In this document: positions 6,438 through 33,859 of the stretch, in pieces
How the letters are laid out: every line of letters begins with the position of its first letter
Position numbering within the stretch: the first letter of the stretch is position 1
NCBI GenBank assembly: GCA_049511995.1
Contig: JBEKXO010000009.1
Location: 2,333 to 66,332 of the forward strand
Direction of reading: 5' to 3'
Source of the DNA: Terriglobales bacterium
GTDB lineage: Bacteria; Acidobacteriota; Terriglobia; Terriglobales; Acidobacteriaceae
Length of the DNA stretch: 64,000 nucleotides
Notes under the pieces: model-generated
Databases searched by the model: none
Told to the model about the DNA's origin: nothing
What the model saw: only the letters and a program-made list of their open reading frames with translations
Translations under genes and position numbers: made by a program

Positions 6438-7542
6438 ATGTTAGATGAACTCGAACAGCAGTACAGCTCTCTGAAGACCAAGGTCCACGACCTGCGGGAG
6501 TATCTTTGACGCGGGTAAACTGCGCCAGCAGTTTGCGGAAATAGAAAAGCAGGCTTCGGACCCGAATCTGTGGTCGAATCCGGAAAAATCTCAGCAGGTA
6601 ATGCGCGAACGGAAACGGCTGGAGAGCTTGTTGTCGCTCGAAGGCGATCTGGCGCGCCGGACCGACGACATCGCCACTTATTTTGATCTCGCTGGCGAAG
6701 GCGAGAACGTTGCGGCTGATTTGCAGCGCGACCTCGAATCTTTGCGCGAGTTGGTGGACCGCGTCGAAACCGAGACGCTGCTTTCGGGCGAGACCGACGC
6801 GCTGAACGCGATCGTGACCATTCATCCGGGCGCAGGGGGAACCGAGTCGCAAGACTGGGCCGAGATGCTCTTGCGTATGTATCTGCGCTGGGCGGAGCGG
6901 CAGGGTTTCAAAACCGAAATGTACGACTATCAGCCGGGTGAAGAAGCGGGAATCAAGTCGGCGACTTTTTCGGTGATTGGGCAATATGCGTTTGGTTATT
7001 TGACGAGCGAGATCGGCGTTCATCGGCTGGTGCGGATTTCGCCTTTCGATCAGGCGAAGCGGCGACATACTTCGTTTGCCAGCGTCTATGTTTCTCCCGA
7101 GATTGACGACAGCATCGAGGTCAACATCAAGCCCGACGATATTCGCATTGATACTTATCGTTCGAGTGGCAAGGGTGGACAGCACGTCAATACGACGGAT
7201 TCGGCGGTGCGGATCACGCACATTCCGACGGGATTGGTCGCAGCGTGCCAGAACGAGCGCTCGCAGCATAAGAACAAAGATAAGGCGATGAGCATGCTGC
7301 GCTCGAAGCTCTATGAATACGAGTTGGAGAAAAAGCGCGAGGTCACGAAGAAGATTGAAGATTCGAAACTGGACATTGATTTCGGATCGCAGATTCGTTC
7401 GTATGTGCTGCAACCTTATCGCATGATCAAAGACCATCGTACGAAGCTGGAGATTGGCGATGTTGACCGAGTGATTGATGGCGATTTGCTGCCGCTGATG
7501 CGGGCGTATTTGCGAATGCGGCGCGGCGAGAAGAAAAGCTAG
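6438..7542 (+). CDS. prfB: peptide chain release factor 2, requires a +1 programmed frameshift (join 6438..6506, 6508..7542)
   Basis: ATG 6438 opens a 23-codon ORF that ends in CTT TGA C (6504-6510). The +1 frame continues without a stop into ORF 6601..7542. That ORF carries SPF (RISPFD) and GGQ (SGKGGQHVN). Confidence 0.93.
6495..6510 (+). promoter_or_regulatory. prfB: prfB +1 ribosomal frameshift site with an internal SD-like element
   Basis: The sequence is CGGGAG TAT CTT TGA C. The SD-like GGGAG sits 3 nt before the CUU slippery codon, followed by in-frame UGA and then C. This is the canonical arrangement. Confidence 0.9.
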
Positions 7543-7574
7543 CTGTCAGCCATCAGCTATCAGCCGTCAGTAAG
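7542..7574 (+). repeat. heptamer tandem array (NNTCAGC type)
   Basis: TGTCAGC CATCAGC TATCAGC CGTCAGT lies directly after the prfB stop. Confidence 0.7.
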
Positions 7575-8264: not shown

Positions 8265-9536
8265 ATGCCGCGAATGCTTGATCTGATCCGCAATTCGCAA
8301 GTGCCGGTGAATCTGATGCAATCGGCGGCGCGCGGTTCTCTCTCCGTTCCACCGGGGGAGATGATCGAGATCCTGGTCTATCTGGCGCTGCATCACAAAT
8401 TGTTTGGCGAGCAGGCGCGAATGACGCTGGCAGGATGGGATGAAAAAACCAGTATCGCTGCAGCGGCCGATCCCGCGACCAGCGCCGAGGTGCTGGGATA
8501 TTTTGCTTCGGTGGGGAACCTGAGAACTTGCCTGCTGCCCGCATTGGCGGAGAATCCGTCGGTGACCGAAGAGTTGCTCGACGGATTGTCCTCGTCGGGG
8601 TCGCGCTCGGTGGTGGAAATTTTATTAGCGAGCGAGAGAGTGATGAGTTCTACGCGGCTGCTGCGGGCTCTGCAGGCGAATCCTGTCTTGCGTCCGAATG
8701 AGATTGCCGAGATGGAGAAAAAGTTGGCCGAGCGGGAGACCGACGCGGCGGACGATGAGGATGTTCCGGAAATCGAAGTGCCGAACGCAGAGATCGAGAG
8801 CGCGGTCACAAAATACTTAGACGGAAATGCGAAAGAGTTGGCAGCGGAAACGGGTAAGCCGTTTCAGGCGATTGGCATCACGTACGCAGAACTGAATGGT
8901 GATGAGGACGAAGCAGTCGAACCGACGGAGGTCGCTGCGACGGTCAGTGTTGCGACGAGCGGCGTTGCGATGAGCGGCGCAGCGACAAGTTCTGCGCCTG
9001 CCAGCGGCGCGTCGAGCCCTGCAAGCGCGGACGCCGCCCACCGTGCGGCGGCGAACGCAACCGCTGCCGCTAAGGCTGCCAAGGCGAAGAAGCGGCCTGC
9101 CCTCGGCGAAGAAAAGCGCGACAGCACATTGCAGAAGATTGCCAAGCTCGACATCAAGGGGCGTATCGCGCTGGCGATGCGCGGTAACAAAGAGGATCGG
9201 ACGATTCTGATCCGCGATTCGACGAAGCTGGTGGCGCTGGCCGTGCTGGAGTCCCCGAAGATTACCGACGCGGAAGTGGAAAAAATTGCTTTGCAGAAAA
9301 ATGTATTGGAGTCGGTGTTGCGGGCGATTCCGATGAAACGCAAGTTCGCGAAAAATTACAACATCATGCGCAATATCGTATATAACCCGCGCTCACCGCT
9401 CGATACTTCGCTCGGCTTGATGAAGATGCTGCTGACTCGAGACTTGAAGAACCTATCGGAAAATAAAGAGGTATCGGAGACGATTCGCAAGATGGCGACG
9501 CGCATGTTTAAGCAGAAGCTGGAGAAGAAAGACTAG
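8265..9536 (+). CDS. hypothetical protein with helical-repeat-like ends and an Ala/Ser-rich low-complexity linker
   Basis: The 423-aa ORF starts 3 nt after the HD gene stop. Its central stretch reads ...AATVSVATSGVAMSGAATSSAPASGASSPASADAA.... I recognise no family. Confidence 0.65.
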   Translation: MPRMLDLIRNSQVPVNLMQSAARGSLSVPPGEMIEILVYLALHHKLFGEQARMTLAGWDEKTSIAAAADPATSAEVLGYFASVGNLRTCLLPALAENPSVTEELLDGLSSSGSRSVVEILLASERVMSSTRLLRALQANPVLRPNEIAEMEKKLAERETDAADDEDVPEIEVPNAEIESAVTKYLDGNAKELAAETGKPFQAIGITYAELNGDEDEAVEPTEVAATVSVATSGVAMSGAATSSAPASGASSPASADAAHRAAANATAAAKAAKAKKRPALGEEKRDSTLQKIAKLDIKGRIALAMRGNKEDRTILIRDSTKLVALAVLESPKITDAEVEKIALQKNVLESVLRAIPMKRKFAKNYNIMRNIVYNPRSPLDTSLGLMKMLLTRDLKNLSENKEVSETIRKMATRMFKQKLEKKD

Positions 9537-9565
9537 TACCCAGTAACCAGTAGCCAGTACCCAGT
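9536..9565 (+). repeat. heptamer tandem array (GTANCCA type)
   Basis: GTACCCA GTAACCA GTAGCCA GTACCCA starts at the stop codon of the preceding gene. Confidence 0.7.
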
Positions 9566-12799: not shown

Positions 12800-12884
12800 T
12801 CACCACGGAGGCACGGAGACACGGAGAAAAACGGATTAAGAAACACGTTCTTGTTTTCTCTGTGTCTCCGTGCCTCTGTGGTGA
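12800..12884. repeat. 31-bp inverted repeat hairpin built from CACGGAG octamers
   Basis: TCACCACGGAGGCACGGAGACACGGAGAAAA (12800-12830) faces TTTTCTCTGTGTCTCCGTGCCTCTGTGGTGA (12854-12884). The two positions that differ pair as G-U on the plus strand. The loop is 23 nt. Confidence 0.85.
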
Positions 12885-14637: not shown

Positions 14638-14702
14638 GCAGCATTCAGCTCTCAGCACTCAGCATTCAGCACTCAGGAAAACCGGCTGAGTGCTAAGCGC
14701 TG
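14638..14702. repeat. heptamer array (NNTCAGC) with a short inverted partner, likely the tsaC terminator
   Basis: ATTCAGC TCTCAGC ACTCAGC ATTCAGC ACTCAGG is followed, after GAAAACCGG, by CTGAGTGCTAAGCGCTG. Confidence 0.7.
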
Positions 14703-15379: not shown

Positions 15380-15499
15380 GCAGCACTCAGCAGTCAGCAC
15401 TCAGCAATCAGGACTCGGCAATCAGGACTGAGTCAAGGTGACTGAATGCTGACTGCTGACTGCTGACTGCTGAATGCTGAATGCTGAATGCTGAATGCT
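15380..15499. repeat. largest inverted pair of heptamer arrays (NNTCAGC x7-8 facing GCTGANN x8-9), between convergent genes
   Basis: The left arm at 15380-15434 reads ACTCAGC AGTCAGC ACTCAGC AATCAGG ACTCGGC AATCAGG. The right arm at 15439-15499 reads GCTGACT x3 and GCTGAAT x4. Confidence 0.85.
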
Positions 15500-20440: not shown

Positions 20441-21907
20441 ATGAAGGCCGCTGCCAAACTGGCTCTGGACGGTGCTATTGGGCGCGGGGCAACTTATGCC
20501 GACGCGCGAATAGTTGCGATCCGCAACCGCTCGCTGACCACTAAGAATGGGCGCGTGGGCCATGCCTCGGAGTCGGAGTCGCTCGGGGTCGGCCTGCGCG
20601 TGATCGCCGATGGGGCTTGGGGATTTGCGGCCTCGGCTGACTTGAGCCGCGCCTCGGTGGAGGCAGCGGCGGCGCGGGCGGTGGAGATTGCACGCGCTTC
20701 GGCGCGGGTGAAGCGCGAGAATGTTCGGCTGGCTCCCGAACCGGCGGCGGTGGCGGAGTGGACTACGCCTTATAAGATCGATCCGTTTACTACTTCGGTC
20801 GAGCAGAATCTCGATCTGCTGCTGAAAGTCGATGAGGAGATGCGCGCAGTCGCCGGCGTCACGCTGGCTGAAACGGGCATGAACTTTCAGCGCGAAGAGT
20901 CATGGTTTCTTTCGTCTGAAGGCGCGGACATTCATCAGACAAAATATTCGACGGGCGCGGGCTATACGGCGTATGCGTTTGCCGGGTCCGAGATACAGAA
21001 GCGGTCATATCCGAATTCGTTTGGCGGGCAATGGCAGAATCGCGGCTACGAATTGATCGAAGAGATGCGGTTGCTCGAGAACGCTCGCCGCGTCGGGGAA
21101 GAAGCGGTTGCGCTGCATCATGCGGAGCAATGTCCGGAAGGTACGGCGACAATCATTCTGGATGGATCGCAACTGGGATTGCAGATTCATGAATCGATAG
21201 GGCATCCGATTGAGCTTGATCGCGTGCTGGGGATGGAAGCAAATTTTGCCGGGACGTCGTTTCTTACGCTCGAAAAGCTGGGCCATCTGCGCTATGGAAG
21301 CGAACTGGTGAATGTCGTGGCCGACGCGCGGCAGGAACATGGGCCGGGGCTGGGGACGTTCGCTTATGACGACGAGGGAGTGGCGGCGCAGTCGACTCCG
21401 ATTATTACGAATGGACGCTTCAGCGGATATCTGAGTTCGCGCGAGACGGCGCACACGATTGGCGCCATGCGCTCTGGCGGAACGCTGCGCGCGGAGGGAT
21501 GGAATCGGCTGCCCATGATTCGCATGACCAACGTCAGCATTTTGCCGGGGGAAAAGCGGCTGAGTTTCGAACAGATGATTGCTTCGACCGACGATGGCAT
21601 TTATATGGAGACCAACAAGTCATGGTCGATTGATGACAAGCGCTACAACTTTCAGTTTGGCTGCGAGATCGCTTGGGAGATCAAGCACGGCAAGCGCGTG
21701 CGTATGCTGAAGAATCCTTCGTACTCCGGCATTACGACGGAATTTTGGAATTCTATGGACGCAATCTGCTCGCGCGAGGAGTGGACGCTCTGGGGCACGC
21801 CGAATTGCGGCAAGGGGCAGCCGCAGCAGGTTGTGGGCACGGGGCACGGCGCTAGCCCGGCGCGCTTTCGGAATATTCGCGTCGGGTCGGCGTACAAGGG
21901 AAGCTAG
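20441..21907 (+). CDS. tldD: TldD-family metalloprotease
   Basis: It carries the HExxxH-like TldD signature (LQIHESIGHPIELD) and a C-terminal GxC...G pattern. It is paired with pmbA downstream. Confidence 0.88.
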   Translation: MKAAAKLALDGAIGRGATYADARIVAIRNRSLTTKNGRVGHASESESLGVGLRVIADGAWGFAASADLSRASVEAAAARAVEIARASARVKRENVRLAPEPAAVAEWTTPYKIDPFTTSVEQNLDLLLKVDEEMRAVAGVTLAETGMNFQREESWFLSSEGADIHQTKYSTGAGYTAYAFAGSEIQKRSYPNSFGGQWQNRGYELIEEMRLLENARRVGEEAVALHHAEQCPEGTATIILDGSQLGLQIHESIGHPIELDRVLGMEANFAGTSFLTLEKLGHLRYGSELVNVVADARQEHGPGLGTFAYDDEGVAAQSTPIITNGRFSGYLSSRETAHTIGAMRSGGTLRAEGWNRLPMIRMTNVSILPGEKRLSFEQMIASTDDGIYMETNKSWSIDDKRYNFQFGCEIAWEIKHGKRVRMLKNPSYSGITTEFWNSMDAICSREEWTLWGTPNCGKGQPQQVVGTGHGASPARFRNIRVGSAYKGS

Positions 21908-21950
21908 TTCAGAAGATGTTCACCGCCGAGACGCCGAGGAAAACAAAAAA

Positions 21951-23369
21951 ATGCTTGCGCAGGAAAAAGCCGCCGACATTTTTCACCGGATTCGCCGGCT
22001 TTCGTCCGCCGACGAGGTCGAAGCTATTTTCACCGGCTCCCGCTTTGCATTGACTCGTTTTGCCAATAACACCATTCATCAGAATGTTGAGGAAGAGAAT
22101 TCGGTGGTTTCGATCCGCACGAATTTTGGAGGGCGGACGGCGCGGTCGACGGCGAATCAGTTTGACGATGAGAGTTTGCGGCGGGCAGTAGCGGCTTCGG
22201 AGAGCCTGGCTCGCGTGCAGGAGCCCGATCCTGATTTGCTGCCCATGCCTACTCGCGAAGAAGCGGATTTTTGCGATCCGGTCGAAAAAGCAGCGGACAG
22301 GAGTGTCCGCTCCACACTTGCTTCGCGATTTTTTGAGGAGACTGCGGCCGTTACTCCGGCGGACCGGGCCGAGGTGGTGCAGGGTATCGTGGCCGTTGCT
22401 GACCGGCATGATTCAACTACCGCAGGCATTTATTCGACTTCAGAGTCGCGCGAAGGAATCTTCAACTCGCGCGGTCTGGCGCGCTGGCATCCGCAGACGC
22501 TGGCGGAGATTTCTGTCACCATGCTGGCCAGCGATTCGTCAGGCTGGCAAAAATTAAATTCTCCCGATGTGCGGACTCTCGACGGGGTGCGATTGGCAGA
22601 GACAGCGGCACAAAAGGCAGTGGATTCGGCGCATCCGCGGGAGATTGCGCCGGGGAAGTACACGGTCATTCTCGAACCGGCCGCGGTTCTCGATATTGTG
22701 GGATTTATGTTTTGGGATTACAGCGGCGTGGCGATTCTGGATCAACGTTCATTTTTGAATGACCGGATCGGGACGCAATTGTTTGGCGAAAACATCGATA
22801 TCTGTGACGACGTCGAGCATCCCTTGCAGGCGGGTTCTCGGTTCGATGGCGAAGGCATGCGGCGGCAACGGGTGCCGCTGGTTGAGAACGGAGTGGTGAA
22901 GCGCGTGGTCTATGCGCGCGCCACCGCGAAGAAGATGAAAAAATCGGAGTATGCCGGGAAGGTGGGACCGATCGAAGTCACCGGCCATGGATTTCCTCTG
23001 CCGAATGAAATGGGCGAGATGCCGATGAATATTGTCTTCGGTGCGGCGGAAAAGCCGCAGACCGTTGATCAAATGATCGCCTCCACCGAGCGCGGCGTGC
23101 TGATCACGCGGCTGTGGTACATACGCGAGGTCGATCCTTACGAGAAGATCGTGACTGGGATGACACGCGACGGAACGTTTCTGGTGGAGAATGGCAAGGT
23201 GCAGTGCGGCTTGCGAAACTTCCGCTTCAACGAAAGCCTGATTGCGATGCTGTCGAAGGTCGAAGCGATGAGTGTTCCGGTGCGCGCGTGTGGAGAGGAA
23301 TCGTTCGACATGGTGGTTCCTGGGATGAAGGTGCGGGAGTTCAATTTTACTGAGGGAACGAAGTTTTGA
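21951..23369 (+). CDS. pmbA: PmbA/TldE-family protein
   Basis: Family-typical length and C-terminal region (GVLITRLWYIREVDPY..., TRDGTFLVENGKV). I chose ATG 21951 instead of the track start 21831, which overlaps tldD by 77 nt. Confidence 0.85.
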   Translation: MLAQEKAADIFHRIRRLSSADEVEAIFTGSRFALTRFANNTIHQNVEEENSVVSIRTNFGGRTARSTANQFDDESLRRAVAASESLARVQEPDPDLLPMPTREEADFCDPVEKAADRSVRSTLASRFFEETAAVTPADRAEVVQGIVAVADRHDSTTAGIYSTSESREGIFNSRGLARWHPQTLAEISVTMLASDSSGWQKLNSPDVRTLDGVRLAETAAQKAVDSAHPREIAPGKYTVILEPAAVLDIVGFMFWDYSGVAILDQRSFLNDRIGTQLFGENIDICDDVEHPLQAGSRFDGEGMRRQRVPLVENGVVKRVVYARATAKKMKKSEYAGKVGPIEVTGHGFPLPNEMGEMPMNIVFGAAEKPQTVDQMIASTERGVLITRLWYIREVDPYEKIVTGMTRDGTFLVENGKVQCGLRNFRFNESLIAMLSKVEAMSVPVRACGEESFDMVVPGMKVREFNFTEGTKF

Positions 23370-23440
23370 GCATTCAGCGCTCAGCGGTCAGCATTCAGCA
23401 CTCAGCGATCAGTAATCAGCAATCAGTGATCAGTAATCCG
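23369..23440 (+). repeat. heptamer tandem array (NNTCAGC x10)
   Basis: ATTCAGC GCTCAGC GGTCAGC ATTCAGC ACTCAGC GATCAGT AATCAGC AATCAGT GATCAGT follows directly after the pmbA stop. Confidence 0.85.
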
Positions 23441-23450
23441 TATTACGTAT

Positions 23451-23819
23451 TCAGTTCCCCTGCCGATCGGATTCCACCTTTTTGATTAGGCCTGCCAACA
23501 TTTTCTTGACCTCAATCGTGGAGCTATCCAGTTTCCTGTATTCTTCGTCGCTGAGAAAGCCAAGATCTTTGGCGAAAGGAAATGGTATTCGAGTTCGCTC
23601 GCCGATCCGGCGGCAATATGTAAAAATCGTTGGAGTTCGGCATTGCTACGTTTCCCGCAGCCCTCTGCGATATTGGCGGCGATTCGATGCCGAACACCTG
23701 CGGATCTGACTCGTGAGACCGTAGACTTCCTGTTTAGGAAATTCCGCGGTGTCGCGATAGCTGGCCAGGGTGAGTGCGTGTGCCTTCTCCCAAAGCGTTA
23801 GGTCACGAAAACTCTTCAT
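23451..23819 (-). pseudogene. four-helix-bundle protein (23S rRNA intervening-sequence protein family) disrupted by two compensating frameshifts
   Basis: Frame A reads MKSFRDLTLWEKAHALTLASYRDTAEFPKQEVYGLTSQIRRCSAS and then hits TAG at 23648-23646. The family core IAANIAEGCGKRSNAELQRFLHIAAGSASELEYHFL lies in the +1 frame (23683-23576). The C-terminus AKDLGFLSDEEYRKLDSSTIEVKKMLAGLIKKVESDRQGN* is back in frame A. Confidence 0.8.
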
Positions 23820-23857
23820 GTCGATCTCCAATGGACTGCGACGAGAACCCGACGTGG

Positions 23858-23890
23858 CTGAATGCTGAGTGCTGACAGCTGAATGCTAGC
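23858..23890 (-). repeat. heptamer array in inverted orientation (GCTGANN)
   Basis: GCTGAAT GCTGAGT GCTGACA GCTGAAT GCT is the reverse-complement type of the array at 23369-23440. Confidence 0.8.
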
Positions 23891-24094
23891 CGCTAGGAGC
23901 TCCGCTTGGTGTGATGGCCCTCACAGTGGCCCGCTACGCCCCTAAGTCCCTGTACTACCGGCACTTCGCCGCCTTTGTTCCATGACTTCCGTAACTTTGC
24001 GTCGCTGGTGCGGGGGTGTAATCTCGCTCTGAAATGTGCACATACTCAAGGGGAGTTGTGCAGGGCAGAAACCGGAAGGAAGGTCATCCGAAAC

Positions 24095-24481
24095 GTGTCT
24101 GAATCCGCCAAGGGAACCGTTACTGAGGTCGGCAAGAATCGAAAAGGTTATGCGGACGTGCAAGGCGCGCCTCGCTTTCCCATCAAACTGCCGGTGGCAT
24201 TGAAGTCGGCAAACAATCAGGCTGGGGTGCCGGGCCAGGGAATGGCGGGAGAGACGGTGGAGACGGAGAACATTTCCGCCAACGGAGTGCTGTTCCGTAT
24301 GGACGCCGATGTACCTGTTGGTTCGCCTGTGGATTTTACGATTTCACTTCCGGCTGATGTTGTGGGCGCGGAAGCCGATGTACAAGTGGACTGTCGCGGG
24401 CGAGTGGTGCGCAGTTTTGACGACGGTGGGCGGCGGGGCGTTGGCGTGGTCATCGACGAATACCGTTTTGAGCGCAGGTAG
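24095..24481 (+). CDS. PilZ-like domain protein
   Basis: This is ORF 23975..24481. The likely start is GTG 24095, about 12 nt after GGAAGGAAGG. The motifs are PRFPIK...ENISANGVLF (the D/NxSxxG half is clear, the RxxxR half is degenerate). Confidence 0.5.
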   Translation: MSESAKGTVTEVGKNRKGYADVQGAPRFPIKLPVALKSANNQAGVPGQGMAGETVETENISANGVLFRMDADVPVGSPVDFTISLPADVVGAEADVQVDCRGRVVRSFDDGGRRGVGVVIDEYRFERR

Positions 24482-24578
24482 TTGGACCCTGTAGTTGTTC
24501 AAGAGGTGTGGCTCGCTGCGGCCTCGGTTTGGCGTGGCAGGCAGCAGGACGCGACGGTAGGGCGCGAAAAGAGGACGG

Positions 24579-25421
24579 ATGGGTAGCAGTTCGGTCAACA
24601 CGACGGCCAACACCTCGACCAGCACTTCGGTCGCTATTGAGCCAGGCGAAGGCCTGCTGCTTGATGACGGCAAGGGTACGATCCGCGTGATTGTAGCGGA
24701 TACACAGGCCATCTTTCGCGCCGGACTGCGCAAGATTTTTGCGCTCGAGGACGACATACGCGTGGTCGGACAGGCCGAGAGCCTCGATCAGTCGGTCGCA
24801 GCCATCCAAACATTTTCCGCCGACATTGTGATTTTCGAGGCGGCTCTTACGCCGAATCCAGCCGATGCGGTTTCTGATCTTCTGCGTCAGAGTGCGGGGT
24901 GTCGCGTTGTGGTCGTGTTGCAGGAACCAGACCAGGAGATGACGCTCGACTTATTCCGGCGGGGCGCACATGGAATCGTGTCACGCGAAATTGAGCCGGA
25001 GGTGTTGGTCGATTGCCTGCGAAAGGTCGCCCAAGGCGAACCCTGGCTCGAGAGCCGGGCCGTGAGTTGGGTGATGCAGGCGTATCGTACACAGGGCTTG
25101 CGTCCGTCGGGGTCGCGTCCCAAAGTTTCGCTCACTCCCAAAGAGTCGCTCATCGTTTCCTGCGTCACGCAGGGGATGAAAAACAAAGAGATTGCTCTGC
25201 GCGTGGGCACCACCGAACAGGTGGTCAAGAATTATCTCCGTAAGGTGTATGACAAGCTGGGCGTCGCAGACCGTCTGGAGTTGGCGCTCTATTGTTTGAA
25301 TCACCGTGTAGTCGAGGGGATGGCCCAGGCGAAGCCTGGCCAACCGAGCAATGGTCACGCTACCGCCGCGCCCGAAACGCCTGCCGCTGCCGCCGCTGCT
25401 GCGTCCGGATCCCGTTCCTAA
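24579..25421 (+). CDS. LuxR-family regulator with a degenerate receiver (Glu at the phospho-acceptor position) and an Ala-rich tail
   Basis: The HTH is TPKESLIVSCVTQGMKNKEIALRVGTTEQVVKNYLRKVYDKLGV. The receiver-like segment reads IRVIVADTQ...ADIVIFEAAL. Confidence 0.8.
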   Translation: MGSSSVNTTANTSTSTSVAIEPGEGLLLDDGKGTIRVIVADTQAIFRAGLRKIFALEDDIRVVGQAESLDQSVAAIQTFSADIVIFEAALTPNPADAVSDLLRQSAGCRVVVVLQEPDQEMTLDLFRRGAHGIVSREIEPEVLVDCLRKVAQGEPWLESRAVSWVMQAYRTQGLRPSGSRPKVSLTPKESLIVSCVTQGMKNKEIALRVGTTEQVVKNYLRKVYDKLGVADRLELALYCLNHRVVEGMAQAKPGQPSNGHATAAPETPAAAAAAASGSRS

Positions 25422-25554
25422 GAATTTCCTCTTAAATGTCTCCACGCACGGCCCATGACAGGATGCGAGTGGCAATTTGTCATTCATTGGCGCAGAATGA
25501 GTGGGTCGTCGAGTCGTCTGGGGCCCATTTTGAGATCAAAAGAGGAGCGTTCCA

Positions 25555-25854
25555 GTGAAATCAAACCGATTGGTAATTGCGACATTGATGTGTGGCTGCC
25601 TGGCTCTTTCTTCACTCTCTTTCGCTGCCGATGGAGCGGCCACCTACAAAGGTAAGTGTGCGATGTGTCACGGAGCGGAAGGCCAAGGCAAGGTTGGTCC
25701 CGCACTCAAGGGAACCAGCCTCAGCTCTGATCAGATCGTAGCGGTTCTCACCACCGGCGATGAAAGCAAGAAGGCGCCGCACAAGAAACCGCTAAGCGGT
25801 CTTTCTGCTGATGATGCGAAATCTGTAGCCGACTACGTCAAGAGCTTGAAATAG
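25555..25854 (+). CDS. small class I c-type cytochrome
   Basis: It has a signal peptide and a single CAMCH haem-binding motif. The start is GTG after AGAGGAG. Confidence 0.85.
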   Translation: MKSNRLVIATLMCGCLALSSLSFAADGAATYKGKCAMCHGAEGQGKVGPALKGTSLSSDQIVAVLTTGDESKKAPHKKPLSGLSADDAKSVADYVKSLK

Positions 25855-25874
25855 GTTGATTGCGATTCGAAACG

Positions 25875-25898
25875 GCGTCCCGGCGATCGCCGGGGCGC
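25875..25898 (+). terminator. GC-rich hairpin after the cytochrome c gene
   Basis: GCGTCCCGGCGA/TCGCCGGGGCGC forms a stem of about 10-12 bp with one G-U pair. The T-tract (TT) is weak. Confidence 0.5.
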
Positions 25899-26078
25899 TT
25901 CCAGATTGAGCCCGCCTGAGGATTACTTCGCGACTTGAGCGATGGTGAAGGAGTCCGCTCTAGTACAATGCTCTGTCGCGGAGGAATGCCGGCCAAGCCG
26001 TACTACGGCCAAACGAATTCGCGCTGATTTTTCCTATTCCTCGCCCGCCAAGGGCAAAGCAAGAAAAGAGGCGAAAAG

Positions 26079-33768: not shown

Positions 33769-33859
33769 TGGTCGTTGATCGTCGGTCGTTAGTGGTCGGT
33801 CGTTAGGCAACCATCGCCCGGTCGACGCGTTTTTGCCAACGACTAACGACCATCGACTA
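33769..33859. repeat. inverted pair of heptamer arrays (GTCGT / ACGAC type)
   Basis: TGGTCGT TGATCGT CGGTCGT TAGTGGT CGGTCGT TAGG faces CCAACGA CTAACGA CCATCGA CTA. The right arm contains the transglutaminase gene stop. Confidence 0.8.

Follow-up and report, generated by a model that had tools for sequence, protein, structure and literature searches.

The subject of this report is a spacer in a 64,000-nt stretch of a Terriglobales genome (contig JBEKXO010000009.1; hereafter the window), in which a small gene of the four-helix-bundle family PF05635/TIGR02436 lies between two inverted arrays of heptamers, with a PmbA-type metallopeptidase gene on one side and a PilZ-domain gene on the other. 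The locus is probably a decaying copy of a promoter-less PF05635 cassette armed with repeats, namely a counterpart outside ribosomal RNA (rRNA) of the intervening sequences (IVSs) of 23S rRNA that bear an open reading frame (ORF). The comparisons among related genomes described below showed that the gene and its arms constitute one heritable unit, which resides in the short intergenic spacers of its host and in some cases within an operon. They also showed that the cassette is mostly transmitted vertically, occurs or is missing as one block, can be inverted between its arms, occasionally appears at a different locus with protein clade and arm type unchanged, and decays by frameshift and internal deletion.

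The armed gene in the PmbA-PilZ spacer

The source genome of the window is referred to as G000 (5.02 Mb, 345 contigs), its relatives as G001 and so on, and individual gene copies by L-numbers. By its homologues in named public records, G000 belongs to Terriglobales (Acidobacteriota), close to Candidatus Sulfotelmatobacter. The cassette consists of the following parts.

23369..23442, no strand: left arm, tandem array of 10 heptamers of the form NNTCAGC, ending in NNTCAGT units (Tandem Repeats Finder, sequence reading)
23451..23819, minus strand: PF05635/TIGR02436 four-helix-bundle gene, pseudogene as assembled (three-frame translation, Pfam on the read-through)
23820..23856, minus strand: leader of 37 nt between the 5' arm and the ATG, with a ribosome-binding site GGAGA at 23829-23825 (sequence)
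23857..23887, no strand: right arm, 4.4 heptamers GCTGANN (Tandem Repeats Finder; inverted match to the left array, score 21)

The gene (369 nt) runs on the minus strand from its ATG (23819-23817) to a stop codon (23453-23451), antisense to both the PmbA and the PilZ genes, and relative to it the left array is the 3' arm and the right array the 5' arm. The left array, covered by two rows of Tandem Repeats Finder (23369-23433 and 23408-23442), was read as AGCATTC AGCGCTC AGCGGTC AGCATTC AGCACTC AGCGATC AGTAATC AGCAATC AGTGATC AGTAATC, and its first base is the final base of the PmbA stop codon TGA (23367-23369). The right array was read as GCTGAAT GCTGAGT GCTGACA GCTGAAT GCT, and the two were mutually reverse complementary over an ungapped match of 31 nt (score 21). 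Both arrays reported in a preliminary description of this DNA were hence present and inverted, while their ends were refined from 23369-23440 and 23858-23890 to those listed above.

The same description had assigned the gene to the four-helix-bundle family and had credited it with 122 codons. The assignment was confirmed by the read-through product, which matched PF05635 with an E value of 7e-34 (116.6 bits versus a cut-off of 33.8), and the 122-codon frame was not found in the assembled sequence. Three-frame translation and comparison with the intact copy of G022 revealed one surplus base near 23683/23684 (+1) and one base short (-1) in the T-run 23575-23577, near 23576; owing to these two compensating indels, about 36 codons are out of frame. 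A premature TAG (23648-23646) stops the frame 58 codons from the ATG, and the 61-aa ORF listed for this region starts at a TTG upstream of the ATG. A search of the genome contigs likewise returned the gene as two pieces with the TAG. The window gene is therefore a pseudogene as assembled, through either true mutation or an assembly error. An intact frame of about 120 residues, lacking here, was retained in four of the seven PF05635 copies of G000, the broken ones being C1, C9 and C66. The sister copy C176 scored 124 bits against TIGR02436 (cut-off 24) and matched PDB 2GSC (XCC0516) with an E value of 4e-25, its four-helix-bundle/pentameric-toroid fold being assessed by sequence alone.

In RNA folds of both strands, the arms paired with each other and enclosed the whole 0.5-kb unit in the minimum free energy (MFE) as well as the centroid structures (z -3.7 and -4.8), so that the window cassette possesses the terminal inverted repeats and the long stem enclosing an ORF that characterize an IVS. 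The arm units at this site were altered in concert in G016 and G012, in which TCAGC/GCTGA was replaced by TTAGC/GCTAA on both arms, and this shift is a concerted compensatory change. In addition, the complementarity of the arms was retained far beyond neutral expectation, although synonymous sites were saturated (dS 1.3-1.7). The loop leaves no space for a promoter of its own, and the cassette gene is presumably promoter-less.

The arms are proposed to work like those of the ORF-bearing IVSs of 23S rRNA. In a transcript crossing the cassette, the arms would form a stem of at least 30 bp that would be cut by RNase III; the cut would release the cassette RNA, whereby the host message would tolerate the insert, and a cassette gene in sense orientation would be expressed through read-through. 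Decay of the cassette could leave gene-less repeat hairpins like those dispersed in these genomes.

Association of PF05635 genes with repeat arms

A total of 95 PF05635 copies with their flanks were taken from G000 and 40 relatives (24 of the same genus and 16 of the same order). A copy was regarded as armed if its 220-nt flanks gave an inverted match with a score of at least 14, and 3000 random 318-nt intervals of G000 served as the control. Inverted arms were detected at 85 of the 95 copies (89%), versus only two of the random intervals (0.07%), and also at 23 of 31 additional, mostly fragmentary copies. In G000 itself, all seven PF05635 loci were flanked on either side by short-repeat arrays at distances of up to about 30-100 nt; five had clear inverted arms, among them C176 with arms identical at 30/30 positions, C7 had degenerate inverted arms, and C107 had direct 8-mer arrays. 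The other members of the family, on which the preliminary description had based one of its checks, were thus systematically flanked by arrays, and the outcome that would have spoken against it did not occur. Together with the co-occurrence at orthologous sites described below, these results supported the link that it had drawn between the gene family and the heptamer hairpins.

One could still suppose that the small gene merely happens to lie between two ordinary terminator-like hairpins, as G000 contains about 600 period-7 arrays and some ordinary genes, e.g., ybaB at C253, lie between two hairpins that are each complete. The window gene, however, has on each side one arm of a single split hairpin, and those loops of G000 that measure 180-520 nt were found to contain mostly PF05635 genes, plus one GxxExxY gene. 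As the random-interval control (2/3000, against the 89% observed) refuted the chance or ordinary-terminator reading, we give coincidence practically no weight. Apparent loops of 600-1200 nt between arrays of the same type were also considered as cassettes and were rejected, since they contain ordinary genes (L25, S2 and others) and represent adjacent hairpins.

The packaging of the 85 cassettes was tight, with a median arm of 34 nt, a leader of about 35 nt and a trailer of almost nil; the 5' arm ended a median of 50 nt ahead of the Pfam match, and the 3' arm began about 40 nt past it. Between co-directional neighbours, 49 cassettes were in sense and eight in antisense orientation, the window copy belonging to the latter, rare class. 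The association extended beyond the phylum. When the C176 protein was compared with species-representative genomes, arms were found at 69 of its 79 closest homologues, including those of Desulfobaccales, Planctomycetota, Verrucomicrobiota, Chloroflexota, Binatia and the isolate Nevskia soli.

In a tree of 90 copies, the protein clades mapped one-to-one onto the types of repeat unit, requiring 15 changes versus 34.8 in shuffles (0/200). Most clades were syntenic, indicating vertical inheritance. Eight clades had members at non-syntenic loci that nevertheless retained the same unit type, and therefore the gene and its arm type travel together.

Two minor observations concern the arms. In most heptamer units of the cassette arms, a YAG core recurs in constant phase (tCAGc, tCAGt, cCAGt, tTAGc). 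At G000:C107:2483-3580, an inverted AGGTTTCA arm is followed by a 199-aa ORF with a hydrophobic N-terminal stretch, ten direct TGAAACCT units, the PF05635 gene and four more direct units, and relatives sharing the left flank of C107 do so without the gene for the 199-aa ORF.

Filled, empty and decayed sites

The fate of the cassette was followed at the orthologous site in 16 congeners by comparing the stretch from the PmbA stop codon to a conserved box ahead of the PilZ gene, the box being the right-hand host boundary in every congener that retains the PmbA-PilZ gene order.

21954..23369, plus strand: PmbA/TldE-type metallopeptidase, upstream host gene (Pfam PF19289/PF19290/PF01523; orthologues in 32 of 41 relatives)
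23934..23955, plus strand: conserved box CTACGCCCCTAAGTCCCTGTAC, upstream of the PilZ-domain gene (pattern search, 13 of 17 genomes)

A variant of the box was readable in two further genomes, G001 and G003. Arrays together with the gene were present in five of the 16 congeners (G022, G007, G016, G012 and G005). The copies of G022 and G012 were intact and those of G007 and G016 damaged, while in G005 the interior was inverted between colinear flanks, with the frame from the annotated ATG off by one base on sequence reading. Two congeners had arrays with a remnant of the gene, that of G024 comprising its 5' part (z ~20) and that of G015 being weak (z 4.6). G021 had a gene-less hairpin, whose 47-nt loop gave no significant match to a gene remnant (z ~0), G017 had only a relic of an arm, and the remaining seven had neither arrays nor gene. 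The gene without arrays was found in none of the 16. Hence arrays and gene co-occur across the congeners at the site that had been proposed for examination in relatives, and the window cassette, like most of its orthologues there, appears to be dying.

A second series of states was obtained between nuoD and nuoE, where stop and start codons overlap without any repeat in G007 and G009 (TAATG, TGATG). Ten genomes carried there a ATTTGTAA-armed cassette of about 430 nt, in sense within the operon in both copies checked for orientation (L127, L128); G005, G017 and G023 had a gene-less hairpin of 90-110 nt with the same arms, G000 had a 12-nt footprint gaattttgttct corresponding to the first arm unit, and G001 had a different element opening with the same ggattttg unit. 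The order of these states was read from the pristine overlap in the two genomes and not from a rooted tree. Similarly, G000:C62 had a 17-nt spacer where G021 and G022 carry a full cassette, the right arm of which reaches into the downstream gene's start codon. At 13 G000 sites orthologous to cassettes of relatives, nine carried a gene-less array or hairpin and the remaining three or four none; among the nine, five were of the same unit type as the relatives' cassette and four of a different type. By a rough count, about a quarter to a third of the PF05635 loci were fragments or contained stops.

The preliminary description had left it open whether the heptamer hairpins host the gene or are generated by its insertion. 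Were the hairpins older, independent elements (terminators or MITE-like) into whose loops the gene was inserted later, their excess over cassettes in G000 (about 116 to 7) would be readily understood, as would the hairpin of the ATTTGTAA type that lies in G005 inside the loop of a CACAGAGA-type hairpin that occurs by itself in G001, the ATCGGGTG-armed cassette situated inside an outer inverted repeat that G000 retains without a cassette, and the four G000 sites whose hairpin type is unlike that of the relatives' cassette. However, no copy was seen in which a naked gene sits within an older outer arm of one type, the gene being always accompanied by the arm type of its own clade; the pristine sites (the nuoD|nuoE TAATG and the 17 nt of C62) have no hairpin, yet relatives have the whole cassette there; and the remnants show that the gene was lost from within the arms. 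Insertion into a pre-existing hairpin is accordingly considered unlikely, and the evidence favours the arms and the gene being one unit whose decay leaves hairpins behind. Of the two possibilities in the earlier proposal, the former has thus become the less favoured.

The same comparisons revealed inversions. At three loci, blastn detected a reversed interior between colinear flanks, with breakpoints in the arms; the flipped pairs were G005 versus G022 at the window site, L074 versus L001 and L071 versus L074, and L049 versus L043. Since the gene lacks its own promoter, its orientation should decide its expression, and the arms might accordingly be recombination sites of a phase-variable switch turning the gene on and off. 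The flips between species, with their breakpoints inside the arms, are what such a switch would produce, but no invertase gene was found nearby, and the flips were observed only between species with interiors about 18% diverged, as fits rare homologous recombination between 30-nt inverted repeats. We therefore regard an invertible switch as quite improbable.

Among orthologous intact copies, dN/dS was 0.05-0.08 (about 0.07), with dS saturated at 1.3-1.7, which indicates that the protein of the intact copies is under strong purifying selection. The epithet "selfish-looking" applied to the gene in the preliminary description consequently needs qualification.

The interpretation of the locus as a decaying IVS-like cassette has to be weighed against several results. 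Mismatches between the arms on the sense strand were G:U in 142 and A:C in 111 cases (p 0.059), and therefore an RNA-level stem is not separated from a DNA-level constraint or from arm-to-arm conversion. The low dN/dS shows that the protein has a selected role, for which a picture of the cassette as passive, insulated junk cannot account. The PmbA tree was an unresolved star, so that one gain with many losses is not separable from several gains at the window site. Neither a recombinase nor a transposase was found in or beside the cassettes, near-identical genomes gave no sign of movement, and the two clean junctions between filled and empty states (nuoD|nuoE and C62) showed no target-site duplication. 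Simple decay is not an explanation for the four G000 sites with a different unit type, and the 79 matches to AGAGGT-type arrays in G000 are there without a cognate gene. Finally, some hairpins were nested inside other hairpins or palindromes, in their loops or at their centres, which shows that such centres can also receive inserts.

Relation to dispersed hairpins and known systems

In G000, 137 inverted array pairs were counted, 109 of them with loops of 5-80 nt. Of the 116 gene-less hairpins, 93 (80%) consisted mainly of heptamers known from the relatives' cassette arms, versus 3% of random segments. These hairpins raise the possibility of a partnership in which each PF05635 clade binds or processes its own family of heptamer hairpins genome-wide, the gene-less hairpins being the real targets or non-autonomous derivatives spread by the protein, with the gene riding in one of the copies. 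Such a partnership is compatible with the cassette interpretation. Apart from the composition of the gene-less hairpins, it is suggested by the match between clade and repeat unit, which also holds across phyla (in the C176-like clade, an AGT-type core is conserved amid drift at the other unit positions, and the clade of the window locus has AGC-type units), by the strong purifying selection on the protein, by the burst-like copy number of one array type, which ranged from 0 to 170 among congeners, and by the nesting of hairpins in each other's loops. Furthermore, Avd, a related protein, has been described to bind nucleic acid and a reverse transcriptase. On the other hand, the match of clade and unit is largely due to orthology, as most clades are syntenic; genomes with the cognate gene exceeded the others in array counts only weakly and without significance (p 0.058 and 0.17); G000 and G007 are rich in AGAGGT arrays without the cognate gene; and, to our knowledge, a four-helix bundle has no catalytic site. 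Overall, we consider the partnership conceivable but well short of probable.

A parallel was provided by genes of the GxxExxY nuclease fold (PF13366/TIGR04256), which lie between inverted 8-mer arrays CRCNGAGA in both of the two G000 cases and in 23 of 27 cases in the genus (L209-L238), many of these cassettes having conserved TTCACC...GGTGAA ends. The G000 genes are located outside the window.

G000:C241:121-471: GxxExxY gene
G000:C236:4156-4482: GxxExxY gene

It is tentatively suggested that the PF05635 proteins and, in parallel, the GxxExxY/PF13366 proteins might be trans-acting partners of cognate 7-8-nt repeat hairpins. Beside the second gene, at G000:C236:3728-4150, there are four tandem copies of about 121 bp, each composed of the last ~60 nt of the gene and a CACGGAGA array, as if the 3' end of the cassette had been duplicated repeatedly.

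Among known systems, the 23S rRNA IVS showed the best agreement with the cassette. In Coxiella burnetii, the IVS has an S23p ORF in the loop of a 28-bp terminal stem, with tandem GACAGAT heptamers upstream of the ORF, RNase III cleaving at the first repeat and the ORF decaying (PMC4990558). The cassettes resemble this IVS, and those of Leptospira and Brucella cited in the same paper, in having an S23p/PF05635 ORF in the loop of a long terminal-repeat stem, tandem heptamers of variable number in the arm upstream of the start, an ORF that is often decaying, and no mobility gene. They differ in that the window cassette lies between the PmbA and PilZ genes rather than in helix 9, 25 or 45 of 23S rRNA, in that both arms consist wholly of heptamer arrays, and in that most copies in the genus are intact and under purifying selection; cutting by RNase III, shown for the IVS, would apply to the cassette by analogy.

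Elements of the REP/REPIN-RAYT and MITE-IS kinds share with the cassettes the intergenic location, the scarcity of gene-bearing copies beside many gene-less hairpins that use the same repeat vocabulary, the wide variation in copy number between related genomes, and the nested insertions. The cargo is different, however: in place of an HUH or DDE transposase, such as the Y1 HUH transposase in a repeat doublet that defines RAYT, the cassettes carry a PF05635 four-helix bundle, and the sister cassette carries a PD-(D/E)XK GxxExxY protein (PF13366). Moreover, the cassette arms are tandem 7-8-nt arrays that differ between cassettes, and with regard to MITE-IS, inverted arms were present but the two clean junctions gave no duplication, one empty site keeping a single arm-like unit.

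The Ssn proteins and their NTS/SRM repeats offer a published precedent, counted in favour of a partnership, of a small gene tied to a cognate short repeat dispersed in many genome copies (PMC11893778). Ssn is a GIY-YIG nuclease with demonstrated cleavage of single-stranded DNA (PMC11893778), unlike PF05635, which has no known activity and whose repeats are tandem heptamer hairpins.

Dispersed heptamers have been described as GGGAATC in Xanthomonas and GGGGAYT in Nostoc (PMC4692102), as arrays in Geobacter metallireducens (PMC2700814) and as TAACTGA in Beggiatoaceae (PMC4679880). Such arrays resemble the cassette arms in being intergenic and often arranged as convergent inverted pairs (70-75 in Xanthomonas), and many units have a CAG/CTG core in common with those of the cassettes; the papers (PMC4692102, PMC2700814, PMC4679880) interpret the arrays as G-quadruplex or regulatory elements, with no gene family tied to them in the passages searched. 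The YAG core of the cassette units likewise recurs there in TAACTGA of Beggiatoaceae (PMC4679880) and MTYCTGA of Geobacter (PMC2700814). In our literature search, no account of repeat-armed PF05635 genes outside rRNA was found.

The resemblance to Avd of diversity-generating retroelements, which belongs to a homologous four-helix-bundle fold family, extended to a weak NCBIfam Avd match of the sister copy. Assignment as such an Avd was rejected, as this match (NF033474) reached 39 bits versus a cut-off of 80 and no reverse transcriptase was nearby, none being among the ORFs listed for 21500-26000; no search was aimed at template and variable repeats.

In this genus, rRNA intervening sequences with an ORF and dispersed heptamer repeats, each long unexplained, appear as two faces of one thing. 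The cassette lives between ordinary genes and even separates nuoD from nuoE, which are translationally coupled, and its decay can explain the gene-less hairpins of some sites at least. The role of S23p-type proteins, the tolerance of inserts in operons and the origin of heptamer arrays thereby become testable, and for such work the genus offers natural sites in the pristine, filled, hairpin-only and footprint states. In genome annotation, a heptamer hairpin could be the trace of a dead cassette, and frameshifted "four helix bundle" genes are common. Should the partnership hold true, protein and repeat would together form a widespread system, comparable to REP/RAYT or Ssn/NTS, that would assign a function to a long-orphan family and explain where the heptamer arrays of cyanobacteria, Xanthomonas, Geobacter and Beggiatoaceae come from.

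According to the ORF list and Pfam, TldD and PmbA lie upstream of the cassette, and the PilZ-domain gene and a LuxR-type regulator downstream. A further predicted structure overlaps the end of the left array.

23431..23450, minus strand: small predicted hairpin GUAAU-ACGG-AUUAC, straight after the stop codon of the cassette gene (MFE fold only)

The stretch 23934-24020 (ctacgcccctaagtccctgtac ... ttccatgacttccgtaactttgc) upstream of the PilZ gene is non-coding and strongly conserved in congeners, and gave no Rfam match; it might have a regulatory function or encode a small RNA. An Rfam scan of 21500-25000 as a whole detected no rRNA and no other family.

The TldD-PmbA spacer of the window (21908-21950, 44 nt) contains a degenerate single arm caccgccgagacgccgagga. 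In congeners, this spacer contains one CACAGAGA arm, a full hairpin (G001), a ATTTGTAA hairpin (G015, G017), a ATTTGTAA hairpin nested within a CACAGAGA hairpin (G005), or nothing. A GC-rich palindromic repeat (ggagacgcggcaagccgcgtctc and variants) was noticed in the same spacer of G007 and G016 and in the PmbA-PilZ spacer of G023.

Gene-less heptamer or 8-mer arrays and hairpins also occur elsewhere in the window, at 15381-15499, 12804-12880, 14640-14676, 9535-9565, 33770-33859 and 7541-7570. The first is of the NNTCAGC type, as in the arms studied here, and the array at 9535-9565 (AGTACCC) marks a site where G017 carries a PF05635 gene with direct AGTACCC arrays (L056). A recurring element (gggcacggcttcagccgtgcc ... 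ctagggctttagcccctgaggga) was recognized within the loop of an AGTACCC hairpin at G000:C39:15865-16046 and, in addition, beside AGCTATC units in the TldD-PmbA spacer of G003 (L026).

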